From an uncultured Candidatus Saccharibacteria bacterium (GTDB lineage: Bacteria; Patescibacteriota; Minisyncoccia; Minisyncoccales; Staskawiczbacteraceae): DNA of 64,000 nucleotides. The position numbers and the translations under genes are program-made. Position 1 is the first letter of the stretch. Every line of letters begins with the position of its first letter. Location: the NCBI GenBank assembly GCA_964424305.1, contig CAYRHW010000001.1:71947-135946 (forward strand), given 5' to 3'. Shown here one piece after another: positions 12,412 to 45,636 of this stretch. The notes below the pieces were generated by a model. The model had not been told where the DNA came from and did not search any database. It saw only the letters and a program-made list of their open reading frames with translations.

Positions 12412-12415
12412 AAAT

Positions 12416-12715
12416 TTATTTTTTAATCTTGGATTTGAATGGACTCATAAGGACATTACCTATCATTTGCGGTAGCGGAATAAATGCAGAGGCATAATAA
12501 ATAATAACTCCCAAAAAAGCCACTTTCCAATTTATAAATAAAATAGCTATCCACGTTCCTATGCCAATCCAATAAAAAAGTAATGTCCACTTAGGAAGAT
12601 TTGGCTCATTTGTTGGAATATCCCCAAACTTTTTAGCTTTTGCTAAATCTAAATCAAAAAGAATTATTGATAATGATAGAAAGAATAAGATGACTAACAG
12701 AATTAATATATCCAT
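12416..12715 (-). CDS. Small integral membrane protein
   Basis: 99 aa, three hydrophobic segments. Confidence 0.55.
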   Translation of the reverse strand: MDILILLVILFFLSLSIILFDLDLAKAKKFGDIPTNEPNLPKWTLLFYWIGIGTWIAILFINWKVAFLGVIIYYASAFIPLPQMIGNVLMSPFKSKIKK

Positions 12716-20791: not shown

Positions 20792-21019
20792 ATTAATTAA
20801 TATATTAATATATTTATATTTATTATTACTATTAGTATTTGATATTTTAAAAAGTGATTGTGTTTGTTTAAGATCAAATTTTCTGTGGATTAATTGTGTA
20901 AAATATGTATTACCGAACTGGGTATTAAAATATTTTTTAAACTGTCAGTATTTTTTAAATTCTTATACACAGTTTTTCTCCACTCTTTTATTAATACTTT
21001 TTCCCACTAGTTATCCACT
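20792..21019. other. Candidate oriC segment (AT-rich DUE plus DnaA-box-like sites) between dnaA and dnaN
   Basis: ~220-bp very AT-rich spacer. TGTGGATTA (20884-20892), TTATACACA (20963-20971) and TTATCCACT (21011-21019) are each one mismatch from TTATCCACA/TGTGGATAA. Confidence 0.5.
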
Positions 21020-22372
21020 ATATACTCTCTGTTTTATGAGGTTAATTTCTTCGGTTAACTTGTTGTTATTATTAAACTCTTGCCCTATTTTTTTACATGC
21101 ATAAATAGCGGTCGTGTGGTCTTTGCCGCCGAACTTTCTGGCGATTGCTGGGAAGGAATATTTTAATTCTCTTCGTAATAAAAACATAGCTATTTGTCTT
21201 GGGCGGACAATTTCTCGTTTCCTTGTTGCCTCAAAAATATCTTTTTCCTCTAAATTATAGAATTTAGAGACAGCTTCTATTATTTTTTTGTAGTTAGCTA
21301 CGTCAAATGGAGAGAATATGTAGCTTTTTAATAGTTTTTTGGCAGTCTCTAAATTGGGGATACTATTATTAAGCTTAGAATAAATTAAAAGACGGTTTAG
21401 GGCCCCTTCTAACTCCCTAATATTCTTTTTTACATTTGATGCGATATAATCTAGAACGTCTTCAGATATGTCTAGGTGCTTTTCTTGAAGTTTATTCTTC
21501 AAAATGACTAACCTTGTCTCATAATCAGGGAAACTGATGTCTGCTATCATTCCTCCCTCAAAACGCGACCTAAGGCGTTCCTCGAGCTCTGGGATGGCAT
21601 TTGGTGGGCGGTCCGAGGAAAGTATAATTTGTTTATTCTTCTCGTATAGGGAGTTGAAGGCGTGGAAGAATTCCTCTTGGGTCTTATTCTTCCCAGCTAA
21701 AAATTGGACATCATCAAGTATTAACACATCGATCTGAGAAAGGGTGGATTTGAATACATCGATATTGTGGTTCCTAATAGCATTCACAATGCCAGTGATG
21801 AATTTTTCAGAAGAAATATATCTTATTTTTTTCTTTTTAGAGTTCTCAACAATTTTATTGCCAACCGCCTGTAATAAGTGAGTTTTCCCCAGCCCTACCC
21901 CACCGTATATAAACAAAGGGTTATATGTTAGACCAGGGTTCTCAGAAACCGCCCAAGCCGCTGCATGGGCCAACTCATTGAAAGATCCTACAACAAAATT
22001 ATCAAAAGTGTAGCGAGGATTAAGATTAGTCTCTTTGTCTATTTTGAACTCTTCGAAGTTGAGTTGTTCAATATTTGCCTTCTCGGCGTCCACATTGCTG
22101 TTTTTAGGAGGGATAATAACAGCGGCCTGTGGTTTTATTATATATTCAACGTCTTTTATCCTGTCATCCAGTCCGTGGAGAATTTTTAAAATAGTTTTAT
22201 TATATTTGTTGCTTAACCATTCCTTTGAAAAAGCGTTGGGCACAGAAACAACAACTTTCTCCTCTTTTATAAAGATAATTTCGGTATTTTGAAACCACGT
22301 GGCGAAGTTTGCTTTAGAGATATCCAATTGGATTTGGGATAGCGTTGACTGCCAAAGCTCTTTGATGTCCAT
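21011..22372 (-). CDS. dnaA: Chromosomal replication initiator DnaA
   Basis: 453 aa; YTFDNFVVG, Walker A GGVGLGKTHLL, LILDDVQFL, and the C-terminal domain IV DHTTAIYACKKI. Confidence 0.97.
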   Translation of the reverse strand: MDIKELWQSTLSQIQLDISKANFATWFQNTEIIFIKEEKVVVSVPNAFSKEWLSNKYNKTILKILHGLDDRIKDVEYIIKPQAAVIIPPKNSNVDAEKANIEQLNFEEFKIDKETNLNPRYTFDNFVVGSFNELAHAAAWAVSENPGLTYNPLFIYGGVGLGKTHLLQAVGNKIVENSKKKKIRYISSEKFITGIVNAIRNHNIDVFKSTLSQIDVLILDDVQFLAGKNKTQEEFFHAFNSLYEKNKQIILSSDRPPNAIPELEERLRSRFEGGMIADISFPDYETRLVILKNKLQEKHLDISEDVLDYIASNVKKNIRELEGALNRLLIYSKLNNSIPNLETAKKLLKSYIFSPFDVANYKKIIEAVSKFYNLEEKDIFEATRKREIVRPRQIAMFLLRRELKYSFPAIARKFGGKDHTTAIYACKKIGQEFNNNNKLTEEINLIKQRVYSG

Positions 22373-22630
22373 ACTTTACTTTTTAAAACAATTAATAAAC
22401 TAAGTAGTGAAAAATTCAACTTGGTTCCATTATACTAGATGTCAAATATTGAGGGAAATAAGCTCAAATAGTCCAAGGGTGTTAATAAGGTGGGGATAAC
22501 CTGTGGTGCCGTCCTTTTATTTAAAAATTTTGGTTGACTACGGCGTGTTTATATAATATACTAATTCATATATTAAATACAATAATTGCGACTGTATTTA
22601 ATGTGCTAAAGCATTTCATAATATAAAAAA

Positions 22631-22765
22631 ATGAGTTTTACCTACAAACCAAAAAAGAAAAAAAGGAGAAAAACCCATGGGTTTTTAAAAAGATCGAAAA
22701 CCCAAGACGGGAGAAAGGTAATAAAAAGGAGAAGGCAGAAAGGAAGAAAAAAACTGACGGTGTAA
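22631..22765 (+). CDS. rpmH: 50S ribosomal protein L34 (absent from ORF track)
   Basis: [44 protein letters not shown]; canonical position upstream of rnpA. Confidence 0.9.
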
Positions 22766-22833
22766 AAATCCGTCAGTCTTTGTGTCGGCTTCTCAATATT
22801 ATCTATAAAGGAATTGGTAGATTAACCGTGGAT

Positions 22834-23166
22834 ATGTTAATTAAACAAAATAGACTTACCAAAAAAAGGGATTTTGAAAATATCTTTAAAAGGGGGTTTG
22901 GAGTGAAGGCGGGGTTTCTCCTTTTAAAATTTATTCCTAATAAGTCTGACAGTACTAGATTTGCTTTCGTTGTGAGCCAAAAAGTTTCTAAAAAAGCGGT
23001 CCAAAGGAATAAAATTAGAAGATTTCTGAGAGAGGAGGTCCGGAAGAGAATGGCGCAGGTGGAGAAGGGATTCGATTGCATTTTAGTGGTTCTCCCGGGC
23101 CTTAAACTAGAGACGGCTGAGGGAACATTAAATGATTTATTAAAACAAGCAAAATTAATAATTTAA
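22834..23166 (+). CDS. rnpA: Ribonuclease P protein component
   Basis: Start set at MLIKQNRLTKKRDFENIFKRG....; VSKKVSKKAVQRNKIRRFLRE is the RNR motif. Confidence 0.9.
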   Translation: MLIKQNRLTKKRDFENIFKRGFGVKAGFLLLKFIPNKSDSTRFAFVVSQKVSKKAVQRNKIRRFLREEVRKRMAQVEKGFDCILVVLPGLKLETAEGTLNDLLKQAKLII

Positions 23167-23171
23167 ATTAA

Positions 23172-23900
23172 ATGATTGCATTCCTTGTAAAAGCATTCGA
23201 CGTAGTCTTATACCAACCACTCTTTAATTTTTTGGTTTTAATATACAATTATTTCCCGGGGCATGATTTTGGTATATCAATTATAATTTTAACTTTAGTA
23301 ATTAGATTTGTATTATACCCCTCCACGGTAAAAGCCATTAAAACCCAAAAGGCCCTTGGAGAGATTCAGCCGAAACTTCAAGAAATACAAAAAAAATACA
23401 AAGACGACAAAGAAAAGCAAGTTAAAGAGACCCTGGATCTTTATAAGCAAGCCAAAATTAACCCACTGGGGAGTTTACTACCAACATTAATACAGCTTCC
23501 GCTTCTAATCGCCCTGTACCGCGTATTTTGGAACGGCTTCAAACCAGAGGCGCTAGTGAACTTATACGGGTTTGTTTTTAACCCGGGATATATTAATGCT
23601 AGTTTTATAGGTTTAATTGATTTGTCTAAACCAAGCTTGATTTTAGCAGTTATTGCTGGTATATTTCAGTTTATCCAAAGTAAAACAGCGATGCCCATCA
23701 CTAAGAAAAAAGATGGCAGTGGCCCCGATTTCGCCAATATTATGCAGAAGCAGATGATCTATTTCTTCCCCTTCTTAACAGTAATTATCTTAATGGGGTT
23801 GCCTTCCGCGCTTGGACTTTATTGGGCAGTTGGTAGCGCGTTTATGATTGTTCAACAGTATCTTATTTTCAAAAAACCAAAACTAGAGGGGATAAAATAA
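23172..23900 (+). CDS. yidC: Membrane protein insertase YidC (short form)
   Basis: GISIIILTLVIRFVLYP, QPKLQEIQKKYKDDKEK, NPLGSLLPTLIQLPLLIALY, PSALGLYW. Confidence 0.93.
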   Translation: MIAFLVKAFDVVLYQPLFNFLVLIYNYFPGHDFGISIIILTLVIRFVLYPSTVKAIKTQKALGEIQPKLQEIQKKYKDDKEKQVKETLDLYKQAKINPLGSLLPTLIQLPLLIALYRVFWNGFKPEALVNLYGFVFNPGYINASFIGLIDLSKPSLILAVIAGIFQFIQSKTAMPITKKKDGSGPDFANIMQKQMIYFFPFLTVIILMGLPSALGLYWAVGSAFMIVQQYLIFKKPKLEGIK

Positions 23901-23901
23901 T

Positions 23902-24411
23902 ATGATAAACGCAGAAGACATCAAAAATATTAAAGAGATTATAGGGGCGTTTTTTGATAAAATGACGGTTGCCGCAACTTTTGAAATAAATTCAGGGGTT
24001 TCTAGTTTGGATGATATTTTGTCTAAAGATAGCGAGGGAGGGAGACAAGAGAGGGATACGATAGAGGTGGTGGTAAGGACCGATGACCCCCAAATCCTTA
24101 TTGGTGAGAAGGGCCAAACGCTGAGTGAAATCCAAAAGATCTTAAAATTTGTTATAAGCAAAAGGTTAAGTAAAAATGTTTATTTAAACCTTGACATCAA
24201 CGAATATAAAAAGAAAAAGACAGAATATCTCAAGAATTTTGCCAAAGAGCTAGCTGACGAAGTTTCTTCGACAAAGGAAAAAAAGATTTTATCTCCAATG
24301 TCTTCTTATGAAAGGAGGATCATCCACGCGGCCCTATCCGATAGGGACGACGTAAGAACAGAAAGTGACGGAGAGGGAGAAGAAAGAAAAGTAGTCATAT
24401 TCCCTAAATAA
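23902..24411 (+). CDS. jag: Jag/KhpB RNA-binding protein (KH + R3H)
   Basis: GEKGQTLSEIQ (KH GxxG) and SPMSSYERRIIHAALSD (R3H); conserved position after yidC. Confidence 0.85.
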   Translation: MINAEDIKNIKEIIGAFFDKMTVAATFEINSGVSSLDDILSKDSEGGRQERDTIEVVVRTDDPQILIGEKGQTLSEIQKILKFVISKRLSKNVYLNLDINEYKKKKTEYLKNFAKELADEVSSTKEKKILSPMSSYERRIIHAALSDRDDVRTESDGEGEERKVVIFPK

Positions 24412-27062: not shown

Positions 27063-30000
27063 TTAATTTTCTTCTTGCTGTTGTTTTTCACAACTGAACC
27101 AGTTGTCTAATAATAAATTTCCTGGCTGCAGATAGGCGCTTACTTTTTCTCCATAACAATACCCAGGAATCTTTTTATTATTTATTACCACATCGTCGTT
27201 AATGATAGTGGGGAAGAGTTTGTTCTGGATTTGGTAGCAGCTGAAAATAGAAATGGTTTTGTCCGGGGTTATTTTTATTTTAACACTATTTTCATCCATT
27301 TTCTTGCGAGAATAACTCAGTCTTTTTAATACTTCTGCCCGAGCCAAGGGTAAAGAAGAATTTTTCAAAGAAGCAAGAGATTCGGAAATTTTGTTCGCGT
27401 AATCTTTAATTCCTTTATATTCCGTTCCTTTCGGGCACTTATCCTCGGCTTTTTTTCCAAGCATTAAGTTAAGCATTTTTTGGCAGGGACTCCCATCACA
27501 GTTTGATTTGACACACGCACAATTTACGCCAATTGTATCTCCATTCTCATCTGATGCCGGTGTCTCAGATAAGTCGCACGTTGCTTGGCAGGCAGTTTTG
27601 CCATCTCCACAGGGGCTGTCGCATTTACAATAATCCCTTTCGTCAGCGATTTGTTTAATAAGCTGTACCAGGGCGCTAGTTTTTTGGCGAAAAGCTGCGG
27701 CGTATTTTTCCAATTCGTTCCCCCAGGCAAGGGCCCCGTCAACGGTTTGCCCCACTGGAACTTCGGTATTTTTTTGACAATACATGTCGGTTTGGCGGTC
27801 CCATATATCTTGCATCCATTGGGTCGCGGTATGGGCACTGGGGCAATAGTATGTCAACGGTTCTCCGCTATAGGAAAATTTTTCACAGGTACTACTGCAA
27901 TTAAGTAGATTAAGGTCCAGGGCTCCTGGGGTACATGCATCATCAGTACACGGAGCCTTTGGAATATATGAGCAAGAAGGGCCCTTCCAACATTCTTGGA
28001 ATTGTTGGATGCCGCTAGTTGTGGCTTTTTTTGTTGTAGGGTCAATCTCTACTTTTCCAGTTGCCGGATCTATCTTTTGTGTGCAATTTGGACACTTTTG
28101 CTGAGATTGGTGGTTATAGAAATATAGGGAAGAGTAATCTCCGTTGTTAGGCATCATGGTAGCTGGCCAAACTGGGTCTTTAAAAACATCGGGGTCTCCA
28201 GGATTTTGGTTAGAACAATATCTCCCCTGTAATGCAAACTCCGCACATCTTTTAAACTGGGGAAAGTCGCTAAAGTTATCGGCGCATGTTTTAATGTCAG
28301 TGGTAGCAAGATAGGTTCTATCTCTGTTGGCGATAAGACTTTTTGAATTTGCGACACAGGCATCTTTGCATTCCTTAAGGGCATCGGGGCAATTCGAATA
28401 CTTTGCATCGCAATCTTTTGAGCAGGAAATTTTACAAGCGCCTACACAATATTGTTTATTTTCTTCGCCATTCGCGGCCGCCTCTTTGTAAAAACCATTG
28501 AAGCCCGACTCTTCTGTGCAGCTTGCATTGTTAATGCAATCACTAAGACATTTTTTTTGATTTGTAACGCATGTTTTGTATGTCTCAGTATTTTTATCCC
28601 CAGTACAAGAAGAGCAATTTTTAAAGCACTGTTGTCCCGCCTCGGTTATGGGGTCGCATGTTTTTTGGCAGTAATAGAAGCAACTGGAGTTGCTATAGCC
28701 GAAGCCTTCGCAATATTTCGAAATGTCCACTGGTTTTTTAGTGACTTGGTCTGTAAACCCATTGTTGGTAGAAGTGGTAAACTTTTCTTTGTTGATAGTC
28801 GCCGAATCTATTAGAAATTTCACGGCTGAACTCCCAAAATAGCAGTTGTTGTTTACTTTTGTTTTAGCGGTTTTTAAATTATTCAGATCTTTTTCTAAAT
28901 TGATGTCTTTTATTTTTTCGCTAAGATATTTCAATTTGTCAACTAACCGCAATTTTTTCCAAGCCTCTTTGTCAATAATTTTTATTTTTTCGTCGCTACC
29001 ATCAACTTCGATTTCTTTTTCAACGGCATCTAAAATGGCAGAATCAGCGAACTGACTCCTAAATTCATCTAACCCCGCGTATTCGCAAGCTTCTTTACAC
29101 GTATCTGCGCATGCCTTTTTACACTCTTGTCCGCACTCTTGGCCAGTGCGGGTTTTGAAGTTCTTTTCACAATCTGATTGACAAGTTTGGCAAGTTCCCC
29201 CACAACCGTTATCGTCTAGGGTCATGGGGCCGTGTTCCATTTTTTTAATTGCGTCCGCACTACAACATTGCTTCCCAATACACGGTTTGGATTCACAATC
29301 TGAGGGGCAAGTATTCGGGACACAAGAGGCACCCTTCTGTACCGCGGCTCCCGGATAGCTACAGTTGCAACCTCCTGCGAGCTTACAATCTCCTCCACCC
29401 CCTCCGCAAGAGCAAGTGTTCATTACTTCGGCTATCTTTTCAGACAATAAGTCAAAAAGTTTAGCTTTTTTTTCTACTGCTTCCGCCAGCTTCAAAACGC
29501 AATCCATTCTATCGTGGTTGAAGAAAGTTGGCTCCCATTCGTCAGCAGTGGACACATCTCCGTCGATTGGTTCTCCGCTACCATTAAAATCATAACAACG
29601 CATGCCCCTTGCCACAAGATTCTCGGCTAAAACCCCAATTGGTATTTCGTCAAAGGATAGATTTTGGGTTGTCCCCCGGGTCACCGGCGGATCAACGTGG
29701 ATCCACGGGATTTGGATGGGGACCCACGATATTTTTGCGAAAGATAGGATCTCGGGATTTATCGCTTTAACGAAGATATAGGCGCCAGTGGTAAGGATTA
29801 AACCGAATAAACCTGCTTTAACCCACTCTTTCCCTTCGTTAGTAACCTTGCTCATTCCCAAAGAAACCAACCAATATAGTCCGCCGATGGTTATAACTAG
29901 AATAGATAGTGACGCCGCAGATAGCATTATCGTATTTAAAACGAACGCGACATATTCTGGTATGGACGTTGTTCCCGCTAACTCAGCAACTTCAGCGGCT

Positions 30001-30098
30001 TTGGCTGTTAATGGAACAAAAAAAGTCAGACCCATGCTTAAGCAGGCAGAAAGAAAAAAGGGAGCAAAGAACAAAAATTTGCTTTTTTTTGTTTGCAT
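27063..30098 (-). CDS. Pilin-module fusion protein 1: 1011-aa, extremely Cys-rich extracellular protein
   Basis: N-terminus ...LSAASLSILVITIGGLYWLVSLGMSKVTNEGKEWVKAGLFGLILTTGAYIFVKAINPEI, followed by ~870 aa with about 68 Cys (hand count), e.g. CSCGGGGGDCKLAGGCNCS and CGQECKKACADTCKEAC. Confidence 0.65.
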   Translation of the reverse strand: MQTKKSKFLFFAPFFLSACLSMGLTFFVPLTAKAAEVAELAGTTSIPEYVAFVLNTIMLSAASLSILVITIGGLYWLVSLGMSKVTNEGKEWVKAGLFGLILTTGAYIFVKAINPEILSFAKISWVPIQIPWIHVDPPVTRGTTQNLSFDEIPIGVLAENLVARGMRCYDFNGSGEPIDGDVSTADEWEPTFFNHDRMDCVLKLAEAVEKKAKLFDLLSEKIAEVMNTCSCGGGGGDCKLAGGCNCSYPGAAVQKGASCVPNTCPSDCESKPCIGKQCCSADAIKKMEHGPMTLDDNGCGGTCQTCQSDCEKNFKTRTGQECGQECKKACADTCKEACEYAGLDEFRSQFADSAILDAVEKEIEVDGSDEKIKIIDKEAWKKLRLVDKLKYLSEKIKDINLEKDLNNLKTAKTKVNNNCYFGSSAVKFLIDSATINKEKFTTSTNNGFTDQVTKKPVDISKYCEGFGYSNSSCFYYCQKTCDPITEAGQQCFKNCSSCTGDKNTETYKTCVTNQKKCLSDCINNASCTEESGFNGFYKEAAANGEENKQYCVGACKISCSKDCDAKYSNCPDALKECKDACVANSKSLIANRDRTYLATTDIKTCADNFSDFPQFKRCAEFALQGRYCSNQNPGDPDVFKDPVWPATMMPNNGDYSSLYFYNHQSQQKCPNCTQKIDPATGKVEIDPTTKKATTSGIQQFQECWKGPSCSYIPKAPCTDDACTPGALDLNLLNCSSTCEKFSYSGEPLTYYCPSAHTATQWMQDIWDRQTDMYCQKNTEVPVGQTVDGALAWGNELEKYAAAFRQKTSALVQLIKQIADERDYCKCDSPCGDGKTACQATCDLSETPASDENGDTIGVNCACVKSNCDGSPCQKMLNLMLGKKAEDKCPKGTEYKGIKDYANKISESLASLKNSSLPLARAEVLKRLSYSRKKMDENSVKIKITPDKTISIFSCYQIQNKLFPTIINDDVVINNKKIPGYCYGEKVSAYLQPGNLLLDNWFSCEKQQQEEN

Positions 30099-30099: not shown

Positions 30100-31902
30100 C
30101 TATTGCGCTGCTTGTTTTCTGGCTTCCTTCATTTTTAATATCTCTTCGGGTGAGGTGGTGACAATTTTATCTTCTGTCGGGCTGGCAACTATCTGGATTG
30201 CTACGTGTTTACTACCAGCAAAAAATATTCCTTCGCCGACAGCCGATTCTAATAGTAAGTATTTTTCTTGTTCGGTTAAGTTGAATACTTTTTGGACGGC
30301 ATCAATTGTTGCTGGCGATTGTTTTAATAGAATGGACATAGAGGAATTTGTGATAATGGGCTGGCCATATTCTGATTTCATAAAATCAGCAACATCTTGA
30401 GTAATCGTTGTTACCCCTAAATAGTATTTTCTAGAACGTTTAACTAGGCCGAATAGAAAGGATGCGCCTTCTGGAGTTTGCATCATCCACCAGGCCTCAT
30501 CAATAACTAAAATTCTCTTCTTTAACTTTGATCGGACAATGTTCCAGATGTACCGCATAATGATATACAGGGCCATTGGTTTTAGGGCCTCCTCCATGTC
30601 TCTAATTCCAAAAACGATCATATTCTTTTCCATGGTGATATTGGATTTCTGGTTGAAGAAATCGGCGTATGTTCCTTTTGTAAATTTTCTGATTCTTCTT
30701 ACTAAAGACTCTGCTCCAGTCATACTTTCTAAAATTTCTTCAAAATCAGACATCAGTGGTATGTTCTCTTGCCACGTTATGGGGTCTGAGGTTGCCGTAA
30801 TATCTTTTATGGCGTATGTTTCGGTCAGTGCTTGATCAATAATGCTATCCTCTTCTGGAGTTAACCCACCTAACATAATCCTTAATAACCCGACCAAGTT
30901 TATAATATTAGATCTTAATATGTCTTCTTTATTTTCTTCTTCTCCCGGGATCGGTAGATCAAATGGGTTTAGTTGGTGGGCCGATGTTAGGGAAATTTTG
31001 AAATATGATCCGCCGACAGCATCTCCCAGCGTCTGGTATTCATTCTCTGGATCGATGACAATAACATCGACTCCCTGCATCAAGTACCTTAAAATTTCTA
31101 ATTTAATGGCATATGATTTTCCACTTCCTGATTTTGCAAAAACAACAGAGTTTGCATTTTCCAAGCTAAATCTGTCAAAAAGGACAAGAGAATTATTGTG
31201 GCGGTTAACGCCATAAAGAATTCCTTCATTGGAACTTAGGTCGAAAGATATAAAGGGAAAGGAGGTAGATAATGGAGCGGTGTTCATTGGGATATGTACC
31301 CCAATCAAATCTAACCCATAGGGGCTACAAGAGATGAATCCCTCTTTCTGTTTATATAGGGCAGGTTTAATATATATTAGTCGCGCCTCAAAGATTGACC
31401 TTAATGTGAACTCAGTATCTTTTAGGGCTTTTAAATTATCTTCATAGACAGTTATATATAATCCGAAGCGGAACATTCTTTCTTCCGCTGATTGTAATCT
31501 GGTTCTTAGGGCTTCGATATTTTGGTAGGCCATTTCCAGGGCCGGATCACGAACCAAGCCCTTATCTCCCCTCTCTAATAACTCAGCAGACACTTCGGTA
31601 ATTTTCTTCCTTAACTTTTTTAAAATTAATTCTGTGCTGATCGGCGATATATGGAAGGCTATGTCCATCGGCGAATTCAGATTGATTACTGGGGACAGCC
31701 ATCCAGTGTTTAGATATCTGGGGTAAGAAAAAATAAAAAAGGAACGGCAAAGTCTTTCGCCAAGCACAATGTGGTCTGGGTTCACTCCAATGTGCGGGGG
31801 CGAAATGATGTCTCGTACATCAAAAGCCTCTTCTTCAAATATTTTTTCTTCAAGAAGGTCGTTTTTTTTGGGTAATAGTTTATCTAAAAATGGTATCTTC
31901 AT
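30100..31902 (-). CDS. virB4: VirB4/TrbE/PrgJ-family type IV secretion ATPase
   Basis: 600 aa; Walker A VFAKSGSGKSYAIK, Walker B RILVIDEAWWMM, GVTTITQD motif; N-terminal CagE/TrbE/VirB-type domain. Confidence 0.9.
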   Translation of the reverse strand: MKIPFLDKLLPKKNDLLEEKIFEEEAFDVRDIISPPHIGVNPDHIVLGERLCRSFFIFSYPRYLNTGWLSPVINLNSPMDIAFHISPISTELILKKLRKKITEVSAELLERGDKGLVRDPALEMAYQNIEALRTRLQSAEERMFRFGLYITVYEDNLKALKDTEFTLRSIFEARLIYIKPALYKQKEGFISCSPYGLDLIGVHIPMNTAPLSTSFPFISFDLSSNEGILYGVNRHNNSLVLFDRFSLENANSVVFAKSGSGKSYAIKLEILRYLMQGVDVIVIDPENEYQTLGDAVGGSYFKISLTSAHQLNPFDLPIPGEEENKEDILRSNIINLVGLLRIMLGGLTPEEDSIIDQALTETYAIKDITATSDPITWQENIPLMSDFEEILESMTGAESLVRRIRKFTKGTYADFFNQKSNITMEKNMIVFGIRDMEEALKPMALYIIMRYIWNIVRSKLKKRILVIDEAWWMMQTPEGASFLFGLVKRSRKYYLGVTTITQDVADFMKSEYGQPIITNSSMSILLKQSPATIDAVQKVFNLTEQEKYLLLESAVGEGIFFAGSKHVAIQIVASPTEDKIVTTSPEEILKMKEARKQAAQ

Positions 31903-31904: not shown

Positions 31905-32579
31905 TTACTTAATTAGCTCTGGTAATATTTCTGGGTAATAACCAATTTCTGCTTGGTCTGGGTGATGGATCGCCCAAAATAATTCTATAAGTTCTGCTGT
32001 GGTTAGGGGGATAGATTCTATTCCACATCGTCTTAGCCCCATGGCCAGAAATTCCATTCTTTGCCAAAGTTGGGTTCGAGCTCTTTCAAACTCTTCGTCA
32101 GACATCGCTTTTTGAGCTGGGGTTTGGCCCTTATTCCCACCGAGAATTCCCCCAAGGTTAAAACCCTTAATGGCTGATTTAACACCGAGGGCCTCCATGA
32201 GAGAATAGGGGACGACGAAATAGAAATTCTTTACCATAATAGTTTCTCCCTGCACTAGACTTTGTATATATTCTCGGTAAGAAGCGGTTTGTATTTTTAA
32301 AAGGTCATTAGTGTGTTTCTCTTCCAAGGTTTTTAGACTATCTAAATACGGTGTTATATTTATTCGTTTTGATTGAAGAATAATTTGGCAGGGAAAATCC
32401 AAGCTGTTTAAAAAGTTTTGGTAAGCAAAAATAATGGCGGTTTGCTCGTCTTCAGATTTCAAAGCAAAATTTAAGGAAGAGACCATTAGAACCCCGCGGA
32501 TACCCTGGTTTTTTAAAATCAACACTCCCTCTTTAATATCTCGGACTTCTAAAAAATCTTGTGTCGAAGATTCTGGCAT
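31905..32579 (-). CDS. T4SS-associated protein resembling the N-terminal (non-ATPase) domain of VirB4
   Basis: 224 aa. FLEVRDIKEGVLILKNQGIRGVLMVSSLNF...FPCQIILQS parallels FDVRDIISPPHIG..IVLGERLCRSFFIFSYPRYL...MDIAFHISP of the adjacent VirB4. No P-loop; 2-nt gap to virB4. Confidence 0.45.
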   Translation of the reverse strand: MPESSTQDFLEVRDIKEGVLILKNQGIRGVLMVSSLNFALKSEDEQTAIIFAYQNFLNSLDFPCQIILQSKRINITPYLDSLKTLEEKHTNDLLKIQTASYREYIQSLVQGETIMVKNFYFVVPYSLMEALGVKSAIKGFNLGGILGGNKGQTPAQKAMSDEEFERARTQLWQRMEFLAMGLRRCGIESIPLTTAELIELFWAIHHPDQAEIGYYPEILPELIK

Positions 32580-32585
32580 TTTTTA

Positions 32586-32996
32586 TTATTTTGTTTTTAG
32601 TTCAACTTGAGTTTTTAAACTTTTTAAAGCACTGGCCCGGCCCATGCCTAGTTTTTTCTCTTCAACGACAAATTTTAGCGGTGCTTTCTGTATGGTTTTA
32701 AATGGGTAAAGAGATTCTTTCTTTTTCCATGTGTAATTTTTTGAGCTGCCCAGAAACCCGATAGAATTCAAAATAACCGTTAAGGCGGGAATCCCGTCCA
32801 TTTTGTAAAAAGCTAAACCAGCCGTTCCCACTCCGATTATGAGGGCCAGAATTATAAACAATGAAAATGGGAGGAAGGAATAAAGCAAAAAGATAACAAC
32901 GCCAGCGCCAACTAAATAGAGGAATTGTTTTGTAGTAAGAAAAGAAACAATTTTTGATTCTTCTTCGATAAATTGTGGTACCGAGTATTGTTCCAT
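32586..32996 (-). CDS. PrgI/VirB3-like small T4SS membrane protein
   Basis: 136 aa; MEQYSVPQFIEEESKIVSFLTTKQFLYLVGAGVVIFLLY followed by a second TM. Pattern and position (upstream of VirB4) match the PrgI family. Confidence 0.6.
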   Translation of the reverse strand: MEQYSVPQFIEEESKIVSFLTTKQFLYLVGAGVVIFLLYSFLPFSLFIILALIIGVGTAGLAFYKMDGIPALTVILNSIGFLGSSKNYTWKKKESLYPFKTIQKAPLKFVVEEKKLGMGRASALKSLKTQVELKTK

Positions 32997-33040
32997 GTTT
33001 TATTATTATAACATAACAAAAAAATGGAAACAAAAACGGG

Positions 33041-33081
33041 TGTCAATATCTATTGACATATAGAATTGTAAATGGTATAAT
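33041..33081 (+). promoter_or_regulatory. Perfect consensus sigma-70 promoter with palindrome over the -35
   Basis: TGTCAATATCTATTGACA palindrome (33041-33058); TTGACA (33053-33058), 17-nt spacer, TATAAT (33076-33081). Leader hairpin GTTGGGA-N5-TCCCAAC at 33093-33111. Confidence 0.65.
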
Positions 33082-33168
33082 ATAAGAGTGATGTTGGGAG
33101 TGTTTCCCAACAAATGGATCGGACATTGACATCAAAGATGTCTAAAAGAAAACGTGAAGGAGACTGTC

Positions 33169-34518
33169 ATGAAGAATTGGAAAAAATGGTTGGTAATGGG
33201 GATGCTTATCTGGGTGTGGCTACTGGGGCTCTATGTTTTGTGGGCCCTCGGTGGAACGTTCCAGAGGATCATCACAGTCGTGTTGGCCCTGATTATGGTC
33301 AACTGGCTGGCGCATGGATTCACGATTGTCAAAGAGGCGACGGCCAAGTTGGTCGTGTCTTTCGGGAGCTTCAGCCACTGTATGATGGCCTGGAAAGATC
33401 ATGATTTCCGGAGGAACCTTCCGGACCCGCGCAATCTTATCACTCCTGACAACGAGTGGGATGTGATCGACGCCCCTGGTAAACAGTCGGCCTGTGGGTT
33501 GCGCTGGATTGGGCTTTGGCCCGTGTATTCGGTCGTCAAATACGACCTCAAATACCGGGTCATAGAGTTGGTGGAGGGACAGGAAGTGGTCGAAACCTAT
33601 GATCTAAGAGGGATCGATTTCTTCACCCTCAAGCAGCACATGAACTGGTTGGATTTGCTTGATGCAGAGTCAGCTGGTGAGGAAGACGGCACCGGAGCGT
33701 TGAAGTTTGATCTGGAGTTCCTTCTTGGGCTCCAGATCATCAATCCCTATAAGGCTCATTACGGGGCCCCGGGGGATTGGAACACGAACACGGTGGCGCG
33801 TCTGAGTTCTTTCTTGAGAAACTGGGTGACAAGTAAGTCCCCCAAGCAGCTTCTGACCATGAGTCGGTTGCCGAAACGGGCTCGCAGGGCTGTTGGAAGT
33901 GTCACCCCCAGAGTGCCCACCCTCTATCAGGAACTCCTGAAGGATCCCGTCGTCAAGGACATCGAACGGAACTGGGGCATCAAGGTGATCGAGAACGGAA
34001 TCGATGTCCGGGATATCGGGATGACCGAGGAGCTCCAGAAAGCTTTTGCTGCTGAGCAAGAGCAGAAGCTGTTGGCGAAAGGACTCGCCGCACAGACGGC
34101 TGACCCAGTCATGCAGTATCTTTCGGCGATGACCGGGAAGACTGTCCGCGATCTCCAGGTGGAGTACAACGCAGACCCGGAAGTCTTCAACGGGAGATAC
34201 GCGCGACAGATCTCCAAGGCCGAAGAAATGGCGGAGCAGGTTCTACCATTGGCACAAGGGAGATCACAGCATATGTTCCCGGGTGCTGATGGTATCGGGA
34301 AGCTACTTCTCGGGCTAGTAGCAACGGCCCGAAGTGGTGACCAGGGTGGGGACAATACTCCACCCCCGGCACCCGTAACGACCCCCCCCGTTCCGCAACC
34401 AACTGGAGGAGCAGGACAGCCCGTGGTGTCACCACCTGCTGGCGTTCCGATGACCACCGAGGAGGCAGAGGCCTTCCATGCGGAGATGGAGGAACTATTG
34501 GCGAGAGGAGGAAAGTGA
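33169..34518 (+). CDS. SPFH/Band-7 (prohibitin-like) domain membrane protein with Pro-rich C-terminus; GC-rich, likely horizontally acquired
   Basis: Start set at ATG 33169, 7 nt after AAGGAG. N-terminal TMs, IVKEATAKLVVSFGSF, GIKVIENGIDVRDIGMTEELQKAFAAEQEQK (SPFH-like), PPPAPVTTPPVPQP tail. Hand-counted lines are 45-67% GC vs ~35% in flanks. Confidence 0.75.
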   Translation: MKNWKKWLVMGMLIWVWLLGLYVLWALGGTFQRIITVVLALIMVNWLAHGFTIVKEATAKLVVSFGSFSHCMMAWKDHDFRRNLPDPRNLITPDNEWDVIDAPGKQSACGLRWIGLWPVYSVVKYDLKYRVIELVEGQEVVETYDLRGIDFFTLKQHMNWLDLLDAESAGEEDGTGALKFDLEFLLGLQIINPYKAHYGAPGDWNTNTVARLSSFLRNWVTSKSPKQLLTMSRLPKRARRAVGSVTPRVPTLYQELLKDPVVKDIERNWGIKVIENGIDVRDIGMTEELQKAFAAEQEQKLLAKGLAAQTADPVMQYLSAMTGKTVRDLQVEYNADPEVFNGRYARQISKAEEMAEQVLPLAQGRSQHMFPGADGIGKLLLGLVATARSGDQGGDNTPPPAPVTTPPVPQPTGGAGQPVVSPPAGVPMTTEEAEAFHAEMEELLARGGK

Positions 34519-34536
34519 AAAGGGGCTTACAAGCTC

Positions 34537-34568
34537 AAAAAAGGCGAGACACACGTGTCTCGCCTTTT
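34537..34568. terminator. Bidirectional terminator
   Basis: AAAAAA-GGCGAGAC-ACACGT-GTCTCGCC-TTTT between convergent genes. Confidence 0.8.
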
Positions 34569-34580: not shown

Positions 34581-35156
34581 TTAATTAATCGGCTCCCTGT
34601 AGGCATCATCTTTTTTTGGTTCTGTCGGTGGTTGTTTCTCCGTGTTTTCTTTTTCGGGAAATTGGGTGGATGGTGTTTGAATCTCGTCATCAGTAGGCCC
34701 CGGTTCCAGCGGCACATTTTGCTCAATTGGTTTTGGTGGGAGCACCGAGAGTTGACTTAAATCTTCCCGAGAATCAGTTGTTGCTTCTAATATGGGATCT
34801 TGCTCGTGTTCTAAAGTAGAGGGTTTTTCTTGTTCGGCGATTTCCTCTGGGGTTGCCCTTCTTGCTCCTAAAAGTAGTTTTTCCTTAACATCAGCAGCAA
34901 GTCCTTGGGCTGTTTGATCGGATACCATTAATCTCTCCTTAATTAAGGAGACTAAGTCATTTTCTTGGGTTGTCCCAAGAACAATTTCTTCAACTATCGT
35001 TAGAATTAAATCTCCGTTGAGTAATTCCTCCCTTTCTAGTTTATCGGAGATCTCATCGGGTTTCTCCTCTAAACCATACTTCTGAAGAATTTCGGCAATA
35101 GTAGTGGCAGTGTCTCTGTCAAAAAGTACTTTGCCGTAGTTATTAGTGTCATTCAT
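34581..35156 (-). CDS. Hypothetical protein (acidic, disordered C-terminus)
   Basis: 191 aa, 3 nt downstream of the VirB6-like gene; no recognisable motif. Confidence 0.55.
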   Translation of the reverse strand: MNDTNNYGKVLFDRDTATTIAEILQKYGLEEKPDEISDKLEREELLNGDLILTIVEEIVLGTTQENDLVSLIKERLMVSDQTAQGLAADVKEKLLLGARRATPEEIAEQEKPSTLEHEQDPILEATTDSREDLSQLSVLPPKPIEQNVPLEPGPTDDEIQTPSTQFPEKENTEKQPPTEPKKDDAYREPIN

Positions 35157-35159
35157 ATT

Positions 35160-37511
35160 TTATTTTTTAGGAAGATTAAAAAATGTTGATTTTGGAGGAT
35201 TCTTTGAAATATTTGAAATATGATCAGCATCTCGGCTTATTGATTGTGAGTGGGCGTCGTCCGCTGGTTGTTGTGAGGTTCTCCCTGACGCTGCGTTGTA
35301 TCCCCTTTTGAAGGTGCCGGCTATTTTCCTTCCTGCTTTTTGAAACCCTTTTCCTGTTCCCCTCAATGTTTTTCCCCCCACATTTTTAATTTGTCCTGGC
35401 AATCTTTTAGTTGCGTTTTTGGTTGCGTGACCTGCTTTCCTAAGAGCAGCAGGAACAGCTGTTTTGACTGTGCTTCCTGCTCTTGCTGTTGCGCCAACCG
35501 CCCTTTTCCCAGCCCCATATATTGTTTGCGCTACCTTCGGGGTGGTAACCGCGCCATATGCTGCGCCAGCTCCAACCGTTACGCCCTTCGCTGCTGCGCC
35601 CACTGTTCTGGCGGCGCCAGTTACTGCGGTTTTTGTTACATTGGCTACCTTGCTCGCAGTAGACACCGGTGTAGTGGGTGATTTGTAGTATGCGGGCCTG
35701 CTGGTTCGGATTGTCTTTATGTTCGTCATTAAATTTCTATGTTCGCCATCGTAGCGATCTGCTTCGGCAGTATTCCCGGCGACTCTCGCGGCAGCAGCTT
35801 TTGTTTTAAGTACCTTGCCGTAAGCTATCTGATTTTTTAGTCCTCCACCTCCGCCGCTAACAGAATCGTACATTTTTTTCTTATCGGCTGGGCTTGCTTT
35901 AGATAACGCGAGCCCAACATTTTTGCCACTCATTGCAGCAAGACCATGGGGGCTACCCTGGGTAAGAGCCTTTGCTTTTTCTCCGGGAGTCTTTAAGCTA
36001 TTAATATTGTGCCCTACTTGATCTAATTCAGCGACAGTCGGATTTTTCTTATTCTTTATCGCGCTGTCAGCAGAAAGTTTGGTGAGTACATCGGGTTGCA
36101 CTCCACGGGCAGCAGCTTTCTTAGCAAGGTTGGGGAATTTTGCAGAGTTAAGAGTTCCAGCGCTTCCTCTACTCGCTAATTCTTTCATTCCACCAGCGAC
36201 AACACTGCTAGAAGCCCCTCTTCTTTCAACGGCTTTTTTAATTTCAGTGTCAGACATGCTCTTCATTTGTTCTTGGGCAGCATTGGTTCCCTTGGCTTGT
36301 TTTGCAGCGGTTACCCCAACCTTTCTTAAGCCAACACTCTCTAAGAATCTTCCACCAGACGCAGAAACTTTAGATGCAGCATTTGATACTGCACCGGCAC
36401 CTGGAATTTGTCTGGCCATTGCTCCGGCAACCCCCGCGGCTGACCCACCAACTGATTTAACGGCACCCATTGCCCTACCGGCAACGGTAGCTCCTGCCGC
36501 CATTGCCATTGCTCCTGCTGCTCCGCTACTTTTCATTGCTAGTTTGAGGCCGACATAGAGGAACATACAGACTATAAAGACAGCAGGAAGCATGGCCGAA
36601 GCGGTTGTCCCCTTTGGTATAGCCTTGAAAACATCACCAGCAACTTTTATACAAAACATCACTCCTACCCCCACAAAGGCCCATTTTAATAGAGCCCCCA
36701 TCCACTCGTCAAAATATTTTTTAGAAAATTCGAAAGTGATACAAAAGAATGCAAACGGTGACATTATGAATAGCAATATCAGTAGTGCCCATCTTGCCAA
36801 CATAACCCCAGCCAAAAGGAAATATATGAAAGCCGAAAAAACGTAAAAAATAGCGCCGATTATGCAGAGTTTCAAATATTCGAAAGGCTCTATCCCCATC
36901 TGCGTACATTCGCCCATGCTTCTTCCCCTTATCTTGGTTCTTAGTGGTGTTAATATATCATTTTCATACTTTTCTATCGGCCCTCTTATGCTATCACCCT
37001 GAAGCCCCTTCATAATTATGTAAGAAGTATCTATAATTAGTCCGCACATTAGTGGAGTAAAGTTTATCAGGATAGCAACTATTATCAGCTTCCCCAATTT
37101 TCTTTGAGCAGCATATTCTTGAATCCTTAGCGTTGTGGCAATGCCGATGAATACAAATCCCAAAACAACCCCCATGTTAGCGATATCTCTCACTGAGGAC
37201 CATATTTTATAATAGTCAGGGTTACCAGTGATGTTATCGTGGTTAGTCATGGTCTTAAGAAAGGTAGGACTTGACACTGTTGAGAATAAGCTGATCGCCA
37301 TGTCGGCGATATAATAGGTATATCGGATTAAATCCGCAGTAGCGGTTGTGATCATCCCCAACATTTGCGTTCCTAAGCAGTCATACCATGCGGCATTGGT
37401 TATATTGGGTATTGCAATAAATAAAAAAGCAAAAAGAAAAATCAGAGATACAGAAATAATAATTGATTTTTTCTTTTTGCCCGAGAGGAAGTCTTTAATT
37501 TTTTGGAACAT
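35160..37511 (-). CDS. VirB6/TrbL-like polytopic T4SS membrane protein with ~450-aa Ala/Gly/Lys-rich tail
   Basis: 783 aa. The N-terminal ~330 aa has at least 6 TM segments in a TrbL/VirB6-like arrangement. The C-terminal part is low complexity (AGATVAGRAMGAVKSVGGSAAGVAGAMARQ...KGVTVGAGAAYGAVTTPK). Confidence 0.55.
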   Translation of the reverse strand: MFQKIKDFLSGKKKKSIIISVSLIFLFAFLFIAIPNITNAAWYDCLGTQMLGMITTATADLIRYTYYIADMAISLFSTVSSPTFLKTMTNHDNITGNPDYYKIWSSVRDIANMGVVLGFVFIGIATTLRIQEYAAQRKLGKLIIVAILINFTPLMCGLIIDTSYIIMKGLQGDSIRGPIEKYENDILTPLRTKIRGRSMGECTQMGIEPFEYLKLCIIGAIFYVFSAFIYFLLAGVMLARWALLILLFIMSPFAFFCITFEFSKKYFDEWMGALLKWAFVGVGVMFCIKVAGDVFKAIPKGTTASAMLPAVFIVCMFLYVGLKLAMKSSGAAGAMAMAAGATVAGRAMGAVKSVGGSAAGVAGAMARQIPGAGAVSNAASKVSASGGRFLESVGLRKVGVTAAKQAKGTNAAQEQMKSMSDTEIKKAVERRGASSSVVAGGMKELASRGSAGTLNSAKFPNLAKKAAARGVQPDVLTKLSADSAIKNKKNPTVAELDQVGHNINSLKTPGEKAKALTQGSPHGLAAMSGKNVGLALSKASPADKKKMYDSVSGGGGGLKNQIAYGKVLKTKAAAARVAGNTAEADRYDGEHRNLMTNIKTIRTSRPAYYKSPTTPVSTASKVANVTKTAVTGAARTVGAAAKGVTVGAGAAYGAVTTPKVAQTIYGAGKRAVGATARAGSTVKTAVPAALRKAGHATKNATKRLPGQIKNVGGKTLRGTGKGFQKAGRKIAGTFKRGYNAASGRTSQQPADDAHSQSISRDADHISNISKNPPKSTFFNLPKK

Positions 37512-44322: not shown

Positions 44323-45636
44323 TTATTTTCCAAGTTCTGACTCGAGACTTTTTTGAGCCAGGGCTTGTTTTTTCTCTTGTTCCTTTTGGGCTAGCTGTAC
44401 TAGCTTCGTCCTTTCGAAGGTCAATTGTTTCTGGGTAGTGCCATTTATGCTCACTTTCCAGATTTCATTGTCTTTTCCGACGAAGGCAATCGTTTTGTTG
44501 TCGGGAGACCATGACCAACGAGGCCAATAGAGATAACTTCTTGGTCGTATCTCATTGGCTTCCACCGGCGAAAGGTTGGGCACCTTCAGCCGTGAAATGA
44601 CTGCTCCCGCGGGGATTGTCTCGCCATGTTTGGCTATATCATTGGCAACCAATTTATTCACATTGAGAATTTGGACGTTGTCGTCCTTAACAACTGCCAC
44701 CATCTGGCCGGTCAGCCCCAATATGCTTGGTAGCCTGCTCGATCTGTCCCCGTAAATAGGCGCGGTTGTCGGCTGGCTTCCGTCTGGTTTCGCCACATTC
44801 AAACGGGCCGTATTGGTGCAAAAAATATATTTTGAATCCGGCGATACGGCGATGTCTTCAAGCATTGAGAAGGCGCCCTCGCTTGGATTCTTTACCTCTG
44901 TAAGGTTTTTGCCGTCAACATCAATAATGAAAAATGAGCATTGGCTTGGTTCGCCAGTGGCGAACGTAATTCTCTTGCTATTTGGGAACCAAACTGGGTT
45001 GAACCCGTCTGTGAGCTTGAACCAGAATTTTCCTTGTGCATCTGCAATCCAGATTTGAAATTCACCATCCTTGACAGAAAAGGCAAGCTTTGTCCCATCG
45101 GGCGACCAAGCAAGGTAGCCGTATTCTGCCCGCACGTGTTCTTTGTGATTTGTTATCTGAACGCGCGCTTTGGTGGCAAGATCGATGGTGTAGATGTTGC
45201 TATCGTTGGGATCATTTTCGACGAAAGCAATTTTTTTGCCGTCAGGTGACCAGCAAAAGTTTCTAAAGGAGTTTGATATTGAGGCAATTACCCTTGGATT
45301 GTCACCGTTTTCTTCGATGACATATAGTTGGCGCGCGGCCGGGTCATTGTCCCAGACACCGCTTTCTAATCTGATAAAAGCTATTTTGTTTCCAAGGGGA
45401 GACCAAACAGGGCTTCTCGCCATTACCTTAATATTTTCCACCTTAATCGGATCAGTCGGAGACGGCAACTTTTTGGGTCCGGCTGATGAGGATAAATCTT
45501 CAGTTGCAGTCGGGGAAGGCGTTTTCTGTGGCGCTTTCCACGAGTTTGATGGTATATTTTGTGCTATCACGTTGTCGGCTGATAGCAGTAAAGCGGCAAA
45601 GAAAGCAAAAACAACTAAGGTACCCATGTTTTTCAT
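44323..45636 (-). CDS. TolB-like beta-propeller (PD40/WD40-like repeat) secreted protein
   Basis: Signal peptide; repeated WSPDGKKIAF, WSPDGTKLAF and WSPDNKTIAF PD40 motifs; C-terminal coiled coil. Confidence 0.8.
   Translation of the reverse strand: MKNMGTLVVFAFFAALLLSADNVIAQNIPSNSWKAPQKTPSPTATEDLSSSAGPKKLPSPTDPIKVENIKVMARSPVWSPLGNKIAFIRLESGVWDNDPAARQLYVIEENGDNPRVIASISNSFRNFCWSPDGKKIAFVENDPNDSNIYTIDLATKARVQITNHKEHVRAEYGYLAWSPDGTKLAFSVKDGEFQIWIADAQGKFWFKLTDGFNPVWFPNSKRITFATGEPSQCSFFIIDVDGKNLTEVKNPSEGAFSMLEDIAVSPDSKYIFCTNTARLNVAKPDGSQPTTAPIYGDRSSRLPSILGLTGQMVAVVKDDNVQILNVNKLVANDIAKHGETIPAGAVISRLKVPNLSPVEANEIRPRSYLYWPRWSWSPDNKTIAFVGKDNEIWKVSINGTTQKQLTFERTKLVQLAQKEQEKKQALAQKSLESELGK

Follow-up and report, generated by a model that had tools for sequence, protein, structure and literature searches.

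A divergent SPFH-family gene as a probable resident accessory of a Patescibacterial type IV secretion-like locus

In this study, we examined a gene rich in guanine and cytosine (GC) at positions 33169-34518 (+ strand) of a 64,000-nucleotide stretch of a Candidatus Saccharibacteria contig (CAYRHW010000001.1; the whole stretch is hereafter called the window). Its coding sequence specifies a 449-amino-acid (aa) divergent protein of the SPFH family, recognised by family profile and predicted fold. As the original prediction had described, it lies between the VirB6-like and the VirB3/VirB4 genes of a type IV secretion system (T4SS)-like locus, in opposite orientation. That prediction took it for a recent insertion from a high-GC donor, conceivably a host organism. 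Our data do not bear this out: an ortholog occupies the same slot in another genome, 9 of 10 further genome loci hold such a gene, mobility genes are not seen around it, and its GC excess at third codon positions (GC3) recurs family-wide. In our view the gene is probably resident and vertically maintained; it would encode a divergent SPFH scaffold, a conserved accessory of a chromosomal Patescibacterial T4SS-like locus, and its GC bias would be maintained.

The same-slot ortholog comes from a Candidatus Berkelbacteria metagenome-assembled genome (MAG) of a different sample (GCA_026397155.1; locus L001). It is about 68-69% identical at the aa level, has the same orientation, and keeps the promoter (12/12, TGG), a matching leader, the Shine-Dalgarno (SD) sequence and the terminator stem. 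Between the window and L001 the SPFH proteins share 69% of their residues and the neighbouring proteins 87, 80, 58, 55 and 69%. Synonymous divergence (dS, by NG86) is 1.1-2.9 for all six genes, values that are saturated and, this close to saturation, unreliable; the ratio of nonsynonymous to synonymous divergence (dN/dS) of the SPFH gene is 0.086. The original prediction had proposed to check orthologous T4SS loci for absence of the gene. A scan with the N-terminal part of VirB4 (VirB4-N), taking one genome per species, gave ten further Patescibacterial loci. In nine of them an SPFH gene lies in reverse orientation, with the PrgI gene on one side and the genes for a 191-aa protein and a TrbL-like protein on the other; the SPFH genes of L006 and L013 were missed by tblastn and recognised by Pfam or phmmer. 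L011 is too short for its SPFH slot to be judged. In L009 the slot holds two tandem SPFH paralogs (2379-3695 and 4348-5778, both - strand) that are 20% identical to each other, one of them 40% identical to the copy in L008. All genome loci that hold the SPFH gene are labelled Patescibacteria, and none belongs to a high-GC lineage.

The wider family tells a similar story. An exhaustive profile search of 1.84 billion representative proteins retrieved 275 members at E <= 1e-3 and 88 at E <= 1e-10, typically of 350-450 aa, while a word-indexed protein search found only the SPFH gene itself and one ortholog, to which a repeat with a 65-sequence profile added nothing. The context of the nearest homologs in the exhaustive search was readable for four of five, and all four lie in the same type of locus; most matches in this library carry no taxon names, and their lineage was inferred from context. 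Where a distant donor had been expected among the homologs, the nearest readable ones thus occupy the same Patescibacterial T4SS slot. As far as the contigs permit, four distant family members that were looked up singly lie in this slot or next to T4SS genes. A metagenome scan with a 2-sequence alignment had no matches, and one with a 19-sequence alignment subset gave 80 more loci, 68 of them with a complete open reading frame (ORF). T4SS neighbours (homologs of VirB4-N, PrgI, the 191-aa protein or TrbL) were found in 58 of these 68, PrgI being divergent on the upstream side and TrbL convergent on the downstream side. Co-location with virB4, prgI and virB6 across lineages is therefore seen in these 58 metagenome loci and in 13 genome or look-up loci.

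It was the composition of the gene that had suggested a foreign source, and here most of the earlier description holds. The GC content of the coding sequence is 0.556, its 60-nucleotide (nt) lines range from 0.45 to 0.68 (45-67% had been counted), and 500-nt windows over the gene reach 0.54 and 0.59. The flanks had been put at about 35% GC; the contrast with the gene stands, but the value does not, since we measured 0.37-0.38 on the left (31905-33040) and 0.42-0.44 on the right (34581-35600), where the contrast is smaller. Codon choice is shifted with GC as claimed: GC3 is 0.658 compared to a length-weighted mean of 0.382 for the 49 other ORFs of the window (sd 0.05, z 5.5), which places the gene first of 50. 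Both C (0.30 versus 0.22) and G (0.33 versus 0.17) are raised at four-fold sites, G-ending codons account for 70% of Gln, Lys and Glu codons versus 32%, and GC at first and second codon positions (GC1 and GC2) is elevated too. By composition, one criterion for a foreign gene, it is clearly atypical.

If the gene had recently been acquired from a high-GC donor, possibly the host, and inserted into a T4SS locus that already existed, this would explain such a strong outlier, with C and G up at all degenerate sites and at GC1 and GC2 as a foreign mutational history would give. It would also fit a gene that is oriented against its neighbours and brings a promoter and a terminator with it. Nevertheless, the same-site ortholog stands at saturated dS, with a divergence matching that of its neighbours; the family fills the slot across Patescibacteria, with a GC3 excess as its rule; and, apart from the ortholog, there is no homolog above about 32% identity among the 1.84 billion proteins, the readable contexts being of the same locus type. 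Repeats, tRNA-type junctions and mobility genes that might betray an insertion were not seen. A search at the SPFH unit for inverted or direct flanking repeats and for mobility genes returned only short repeats at chance level and T4SS neighbours, and a mobile or invertible cassette was rejected on this ground. The presence of the same GC-rich gene at this position throughout the clade had been named beforehand as the result that would speak against recent transfer; with that result in hand the idea fails, and we regard it as highly improbable.

An artefact of assembly would be another way to obtain a sharp change in composition at both ends of a gene. Such a chimera with a GC-rich fragment of another organism can practically be dismissed, given that a 96-kb contig of a second assembly (ENA) shows no difference from the window in a comparison of 21,137 bases, both junctions included, and that the same junctions, promoter and terminator recur in the independent MAG (L001) and in dozens of metagenome contigs.

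Within the gene, GC3 is high from the first codons (0.72) through the conserved core (0.64-0.74) and drops to 0.48-0.54 over the last 300 nt, which encode the variable tail. GC is 22% in the intergenic stretch upstream and 42% in the leader, and the edges of the GC-rich block are those of the coding sequence; there is no wider tract and the neighbouring genes are not elevated. The antisense ORFs previously noted over the gene are indeed present, at 33220-33402 and, several of them, inside 33670-34457. In L001, antisense ORFs (1665-2252 and 1703-2215) lie over the 5' end of the gene. A conserved antisense gene as the source of the high GC was rejected, as the antisense ORFs occupy different parts of the gene in the two loci.

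To discern what the GC excess means, it is useful to compare the gene with its surroundings across the family. In 57 loci with enough neighbouring ORFs, SPFH GC3 tracks that of its surroundings (Spearman 0.69), with a slope of 0.8 that becomes 1.2 when one GC-rich outlier is left out, and exceeds it in 51 (binomial p 6e-10), with a median offset of +0.076; in 30 of 44 metagenome loci the SPFH gene has the highest GC3 of all genes. Because its GC3 follows that of the host locus, the gene appears compositionally at home, and the consistently positive offset points to a gene-specific effect. The window has the largest offset (+0.276), followed by L076 (+0.243), L084 (+0.240), L030 (+0.208), L001 (+0.205) and L006 (+0.203). 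The GC-rich coding sequence would then reflect a bias of this particular gene, found again and again in the family and kept up actively, the window lineage being its extreme case.

One ancient transfer from a GC-rich source, either into the ancestor of the window and L001 or into that of the family, followed by incomplete amelioration, could also leave both orthologs GC3-rich (+0.28 and +0.21), with L001 lower as if more ameliorated. However, at dS of 1.1-2.9 only about a fifth to a third of an ancestral GC excess should survive the divergence of the two, according to a rough two-state estimate, and the present +0.28 would then require an impossible starting GC3 above 1. The offset moreover persists at 15-40% aa identity while GC3 tracks the host locus, a combination that indicates an equilibrium plus a gene-specific push rather than decay. 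On the strength of the saturated dS and the two-state estimate, we take the offset of +0.28 to be maintained and not a relic, and an ancient transfer to be very unlikely.

The force behind this maintenance is a separate matter, and the data raise the question of why individual genes stay GC-rich in reduced genomes that are otherwise rich in AT. The mean GC3 offset of the seven other ORFs that have strong promoters is +0.10, versus -0.01 for the rest. High expression as the cause of GC3 finds no support in rpsO, which has an 11/12 promoter and average GC3 (0.38), or in the promoter score, which is uncorrelated with the GC3 offset (rho -0.03). Given these two results and the joint rise of G- and C-ending codons, translational selection is not supported; the shift is a general GC shift and not the C-over-U pattern of tRNA matching. 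Candidate forces are selection that acts on the mRNA or on expression, and gene conversion biased towards GC in a slot that recombines, the latter suggested by the incongruence of SPFH and VirB4-N similarities described below. There are hints that the effect is not unique to the SPFH gene. In the window, a secreted-looking PD40 beta-propeller protein encoded at 44323-45636 (-) has a GC3 of 0.49 and an 11/12 promoter. A 111-aa secreted-looking protein of L095 (11988-12323, -) has a near-consensus promoter and a GC3 of 0.70, which is +0.26 over its locus.

Besides the limited reliability of the dS values, several results weigh against a resident, vertically maintained accessory of the T4SS. The T4SS locus of L010 (Staskawiczbacteria; slot 6925-7529) has no SPFH gene, and the cultivated Candidatus Southlakia ML1 has a single annotated SPFH protein, SEML1_0609, whose gene is not part of the T4SS cluster (SEML1_0006-0019). 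At least five longer loci hold the gene elsewhere, namely L095 (beside hrcA-grpE-dnaK), L079 and L086, L023, and L097 (after dnaA-dnaN). The putative tie to the T4SS is one of synteny only. Between loci, SPFH similarity does not follow VirB4-N similarity (Spearman 0.09); L007 and L008, for example, are 81% identical in VirB4-N and 22% identical in SPFH. In view of this incongruence, strict vertical descent of one ortholog is not established, and paralog sorting or exchange possibly lies behind it.

In its strongest form, this argument makes the slot a hotspot of recombination or replacement, where SPFH cassettes, each bringing a promoter and a terminator, are exchanged among Patescibacteria or ancient paralogs are sorted, and where GC-biased conversion linked to this recombination raises GC3. 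Apart from the missing correlation, it could draw on L007, which groups with L015 and L014 by SPFH and with L008 by VirB4-N, on the two tandem paralogs of L009 and the very divergent SPFH protein of L006, and on a GC shift that is general, GC1 and GC2 included, and not made of tRNA-matched codons. Still, SPFH GC3 follows local GC3 with a slope of about 1, as expected of copies that are compositionally at home, the GC-rich block ends with the coding sequence without any rise in adjacent genes, and identities of 15-40% are too low for firm trees. We judge a hotspot rather unlikely.

The members found outside T4SS loci, with their strong promoter kept, bring up a further alternative, that of a housekeeping SPFH scaffold (for instance working with a membrane protease, as HflK/C does with FtsH) which merely shares an origin-near neighbourhood and has no T4SS role. 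The T4SS loci of L010 and Southlakia that lack the gene, its separate transcription, and the long conservation of gene order in reduced genomes would all suit such a role. What makes it unlikely is that the gene lies within the locus and not beside it, between the VirB3-like and VirB6-like genes, in 58 of 68 plus 13 loci; that these loci have diverged to about 50% VirB4-N identity, with other genes gained and lost around the slot; and that neither an ftsH nor an NfeD gene is adjacent. Because the gene family keeps its slot in most loci examined, the functional link to the secretion apparatus that had been put forward as possible is plausible.

The assignment to the SPFH family comes from the family profile and the fold rather than from the single sequence, and it agrees with the membrane-anchored SPFH/Band-7-like protein with a Pro-rich tail that had been predicted. 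Alone, the window protein has no match to Pfam Band_7 (PF01145) at E <= 0.1, whereas 56 of 65 aligned family members do (best 1.8e-14). Direct sequence matches are weak (HflK, E 7e-5, over the anchor and the start of the SPFH domain; stomatin, E 0.5), while the family profile matches the Pyrococcus horikoshii stomatin 3bk6 with E 9e-18, followed by human stomatin, HflK and QmcA. An AlphaFold2 model of the monomer had a predicted local distance difference test score of 84.2 with a 65-sequence alignment, compared to 42 with two sequences. It places hydrophobic helices at aa 3-27 and 29-48, an SPFH beta/alpha core at aa ~51-285, long helices at aa 287-362 and 376-391, a disordered Pro-rich linker at aa ~392-428 and a last helix at aa 430-448; the SPFH alpha/beta fold is thus present, with long helices behind it. 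In the PDB, the 45 best Foldseek matches belong without exception to the SPFH superfamily (probability ~1.0), among them HflK/C, stomatin, QmcA, prohibitin, erlin, flotillin and major vault protein. The N-terminal membrane anchor directly precedes the SPFH domain, and 55 of 61 family members scored have one to three hydrophobic segments there. Members with one segment and a short N-terminus have an N-terminal net charge of -0.28, those with two segments +1.63 (p 9e-6); the window protein (MKNWKK...) is of the two-segment kind. From these charges and the positive-inside rule, the SPFH domain is predicted to be cytoplasmic in both forms. PHROGs gave no match for the protein and NCBIfam has no model covering the family. 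We would class the protein as an SPFH subfamily that still lacks curation and whose genomic association is new.

Comparison with characterised relatives helps to put these findings into context. With HflK/HflC of Escherichia coli (PDB 7vhp, 7vhq, 7wi3, 9cz2) the protein shares an N-terminal anchor, the SPFH1/2 core and long C-terminal helices (best Foldseek E 4e-9). Unlike them, it is the product of a single gene without a K/C pair and away from hflX and ftsH, it carries an extra Pro-rich tail and terminal helix, and its SPFH domain is predicted to face the cytoplasm, while that of HflK/C faces the periplasm. Against the HflK equivalog (NCBIfam NF008181/TIGR01933) the window protein scored 21.7 bits at a cut-off of 660, with TIGR01933 weakly touched by 2 of 19 family members; neither an hflC partner nor an hflX/ftsH context was found, and there is no second SPFH gene in the window locus. 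Prokaryotic stomatins with NfeD partners (PH1511/PH1510 of P. horikoshii) are closer by profile, the best match being the P. horikoshii stomatin 3bk6 already mentioned, and E. coli QmcA (QmcA-YbbJ, PDB 8z5g) is among the top fold matches; the SPFH side of QmcA is cytoplasmic, as is probably that of the window protein. As for a stomatin-NfeD operon, neither neighbour (PrgI, 191-aa protein) has an NfeD match and the SPFH gene is monocistronic. It further differs from stomatin-NfeD systems in its greater length (449 aa), in insertions in the SPFH core (aa ~75-120) and in the Pro-rich tail.

Ties between SPFH proteins and secretion have been described elsewhere. In Staphylococcus aureus, FloA aids assembly of the type VII secretion system. 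The T4SS and the type VI secretion system of Agrobacterium are reported to occur in detergent-resistant membranes together with SPFH proteins (PMC8656257), and, as a weaker parallel, a flotillin homolog of Helicobacter pylori is reported to be involved in cholesterol accumulation, epithelial cell responses and host colonisation (PMC5460342). The SPFH genes of these three species are unlinked to secretion genes, in contrast to the gene examined here, which is embedded in the locus and found so across a phylum-level group. The locus itself is of the type described for Patescibacteria (Quinonero-Coronel et al. 2025, PMC12102498; Wang et al. 2023, PMC10633639), with VirB4, TrsD-like, PrgI/VirB3 and VirB6 components, VirB2-like pilin arrays and no relaxase. 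Neither of these two reports mentions an SPFH gene in the locus, and a full-text literature search found no paper linking SPFH proteins to Patescibacteria. What appears to be new, as judged from gene neighbourhoods, is thus an SPFH gene embedded in the locus as a candidate T4SS association, such ties being known elsewhere from unlinked genes.

The SPFH gene forms a monocistronic unit with its own promoter and terminator, read against the surrounding T4SS genes. Its sigma-70-type promoter TTGACA-17-TATAAT (33053-33081, +) is a 12/12 match, as had been claimed, with an extended -10 element (TGG; TG at -15/-14). Two perfect sites of this kind occur in the window versus 0.03 expected. The other one, at 284-312 (-), also has the TG and points to the left end of the window, where its gene is cut off. 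The "18-bp palindrome" said to embed the -35 box is an inverted repeat that carries it, although not a perfect palindrome: it reads TGTCAATA-TC-TATTGACA (33041-33058, +), with 8-nt arms around two central bases and the -35 box in the right arm. The TGTCAA...TTGACA arrangement recurs in L001 (6-nt arms, identical 18-nt span) and in L019, and the upstream TGTCAA is present in 3 of 67 family upstream regions. We rejected this half-site as the -35 box of a divergent PrgI promoter, since the minus-strand -10 position reads TTTTTT.

The leader, predicted at about 81 nt (33088-33168, +; start inferred from the -10 box) where about 85 nt had been stated, contains the two hairpins and the AAGGAG expected of it and has a minimum free energy of -23.1 kcal/mol (z -2.2). 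Most long leaders of the family have a stem-loop close to their start, represented here by the 5'-proximal hairpin UGUUGGGA/UCCCAACA (33092-33112, +). In L001 this hairpin shows a U-A to C-G change, which is compensatory, and a G-C to G-U change, with one compensatory and two G-U changes overall. The second, small hairpin, GACAUC-AAA-GAUGUC (33128-33142, +), has the form GACAUU/AAUGUC in L001 and overlaps a second TTGACA (33127-33132); this repeat was rejected as a conserved element, being present in 4 of 67 family members only. The SD sequence AAGGAG (33157-33162, +) lies 6 nt upstream of the ATG at 33169 and is conserved in L001, and this ATG, not the GTG at 33154 given by the ORF tool, is likely the start codon. 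No Rfam family was found for the leader at E <= 10, with sub-threshold matches on the terminator only. Transcription would end at a GC-rich hairpin (34539-34568) with a 13-14 bp stem, 14-nt perfectly complementary arms and T-runs on both strands, in line with the bidirectional terminator that had been proposed; it is common to the convergent SPFH (+) and 191-aa (-) genes, and its stem, GGCGAGAC/GTCTCGCC, is identical in L001.

This design is shared by much of the family. A promoter scoring at least 11/12 lies within 220 nt upstream of 39 of 61 members (19 perfect), compared to 7 of 336 other ORFs of the same loci (2 perfect), and by eye most of these family promoters have the TG extension. Leaders of at least 50 nt mostly open with a stem-loop: in 33 of 38 leaders the first 48 nt exceeded dinucleotide shuffles in stability (mean z -1.95, p 3e-9), with z below -1 in 30. 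Judged by eye, the stem sequence varies by locus while its pairing is kept (CAAGGAA/UUCCUUG in many, GUUGGGA/UCCCAAC in the window), GGAG or GGAGG precedes the start codon in nearly all listed leaders, and a hairpin with a T-run is visible 3' of most listed members. 5' stem-loops are a known mRNA-stabilising device, and the hairpin at 33092-33112 likely serves this end. Taken together, consensus promoter, 5' stem-loop, strong SD and terminator fit a protein made in large amounts, and such a high copy number would agree with the cages of roughly 16 to more than 40 subunits formed by the solved SPFH proteins. A separate feature of some leaders is the motif YCTTT(A/G)A, found in 15 of 60 versus 0.7 expected from shuffles, including those of L012, L014, L015, L035, L080, L089, L092 and L097; the CUCUUU in these leaders could pair with the AAGGAG SD. 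It is absent from the window leader, which has CATTGACA at the equivalent place.

How such a protein might act can be outlined as follows. Expressed from a monocistronic unit, it would far outnumber the products of the neighbouring genes. It would be anchored by one or two N-terminal helices, with the SPFH domain facing the cytoplasm, and by analogy with solved relatives its cage might enclose a patch of membrane. There it may organise or gate the membrane parts of the T4SS, the VirB6-like and VirB3-like proteins. A bolder version, which we offer tentatively and think less likely to be right than wrong, is that the SPFH cage is an abundant structural T4SS module that encloses or gates the VirB6-like/VirB3-like translocon from the cytoplasmic side in much of Patescibacteria, with its coding GC kept high, in genomes otherwise rich in AT, by selection on an mRNA with a conserved 5' stem-loop leader. 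If true, this would be the first secretion system with a dedicated, locus-encoded SPFH microdomain.

These findings are of interest because epibiotic growth of the only member that is genetically tractable requires the Patescibacterial T4SS-like system (PMC10633639). In this poorly understood locus the SPFH gene is a concrete new candidate component in several lineages, and the 191-aa protein with its DxYREPIE tail and the conserved leader are further candidates beside it. There is also a caution for genome scans: an outlier in GC and codon usage with its own promoter and terminator mimics textbook horizontal transfer, and here probably represents a long-resident gene.

Of the neighbouring genes, all on the - strand, that for a PrgI/VirB3-like protein (32586-32996; Pfam PrgI, E 5.8e-9) is the divergent neighbour and lies upstream and divergent in most related loci. 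Its start (32994-33011, -) lacks an SD and is preceded, at a distance of about 8 nt, by a same-strand TATAAT (TATAATAATAAAACATG), the promoter match being only 9/12; its mRNA could be leaderless or nearly so. Next follow a TrsD/TraC-like gene homologous to the N-terminal part of VirB4 (31905-32579; NCBIfam VirB4_plasma over residues 103-235 and TrsD, Pfam TraC-like) and a VirB4-like ATPase (30100-31902; NCBIfam conju_CD1110, 358 bits versus a cut-off of 325, and the Pfam TraG P-loop). On the other side, the convergent neighbour encodes the acidic 191-aa protein (34581-35156), which has no Pfam or NCBIfam match and whose orthologs adjoin the SPFH gene downstream or upstream. Its C-terminus is a near-invariant D-x-Y-R-E-P-(I/V)-(E/N)-stop in about 46 loci, kept where the loci are otherwise less than 30% identical and also in L010, which lacks the SPFH gene; this looks like the docking or recognition tail of an unrecognised component of the T4SS locus. 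Beyond it lies the gene for a polytopic VirB6/TrbL-like membrane protein (35160-37511) with a long Ala/Gly/Lys-rich C-terminal part, whose orthologs have weak TrbL/TrbL_3 Pfam matches and are found across loci by tblastn.

The surroundings of the locus offered some further observations. At 19667-24411 the window holds dnaN and dnaA (-; dnaA at 21011-22372), then rnpA, yidC and jag/R3H (+), directly ahead of the T4SS locus, which thus abuts a likely replication origin. The proximity of a T4SS locus to dnaA has been remarked on before (PMC12102498), and the window agrees. L017 has the same layout on the dnaA side, and in L097 the SPFH gene comes right after dnaA-dnaN. Inside the T4SS locus, 27063-30098 (-) encodes a 1011-aa secreted-looking, extremely Cys-rich protein (many C-x-x-C and C-x-C runs) without a Pfam match; L004 and L005 have homologs in the equivalent place, with 30-35% identity. 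In the window only 3 nt separate the two VirB4 parts, while several relatives have a small gene wedged between them (L001 28-420, L005 8688-9116, L007 8712-9095, L008 8733-9116, L009 7211-7576 and L010 8722-9084), which in L001 encodes a 23S rRNA-intervening-sequence-type protein (by Pfam) and in L005 a PD-(D/E)XK nuclease. Finally, in the Patescibacteria MAG of L004 the VirB4 ATPase (8674-12471, +; a 1265-aa ORF) is interrupted after the residue matching position 263 of the window VirB4. An intein is inserted there (Pfam Intein_splicing 8e-19), and it includes a homing endonuclease of the LAGLIDADG type (LAGLIDADG_3 1e-16).

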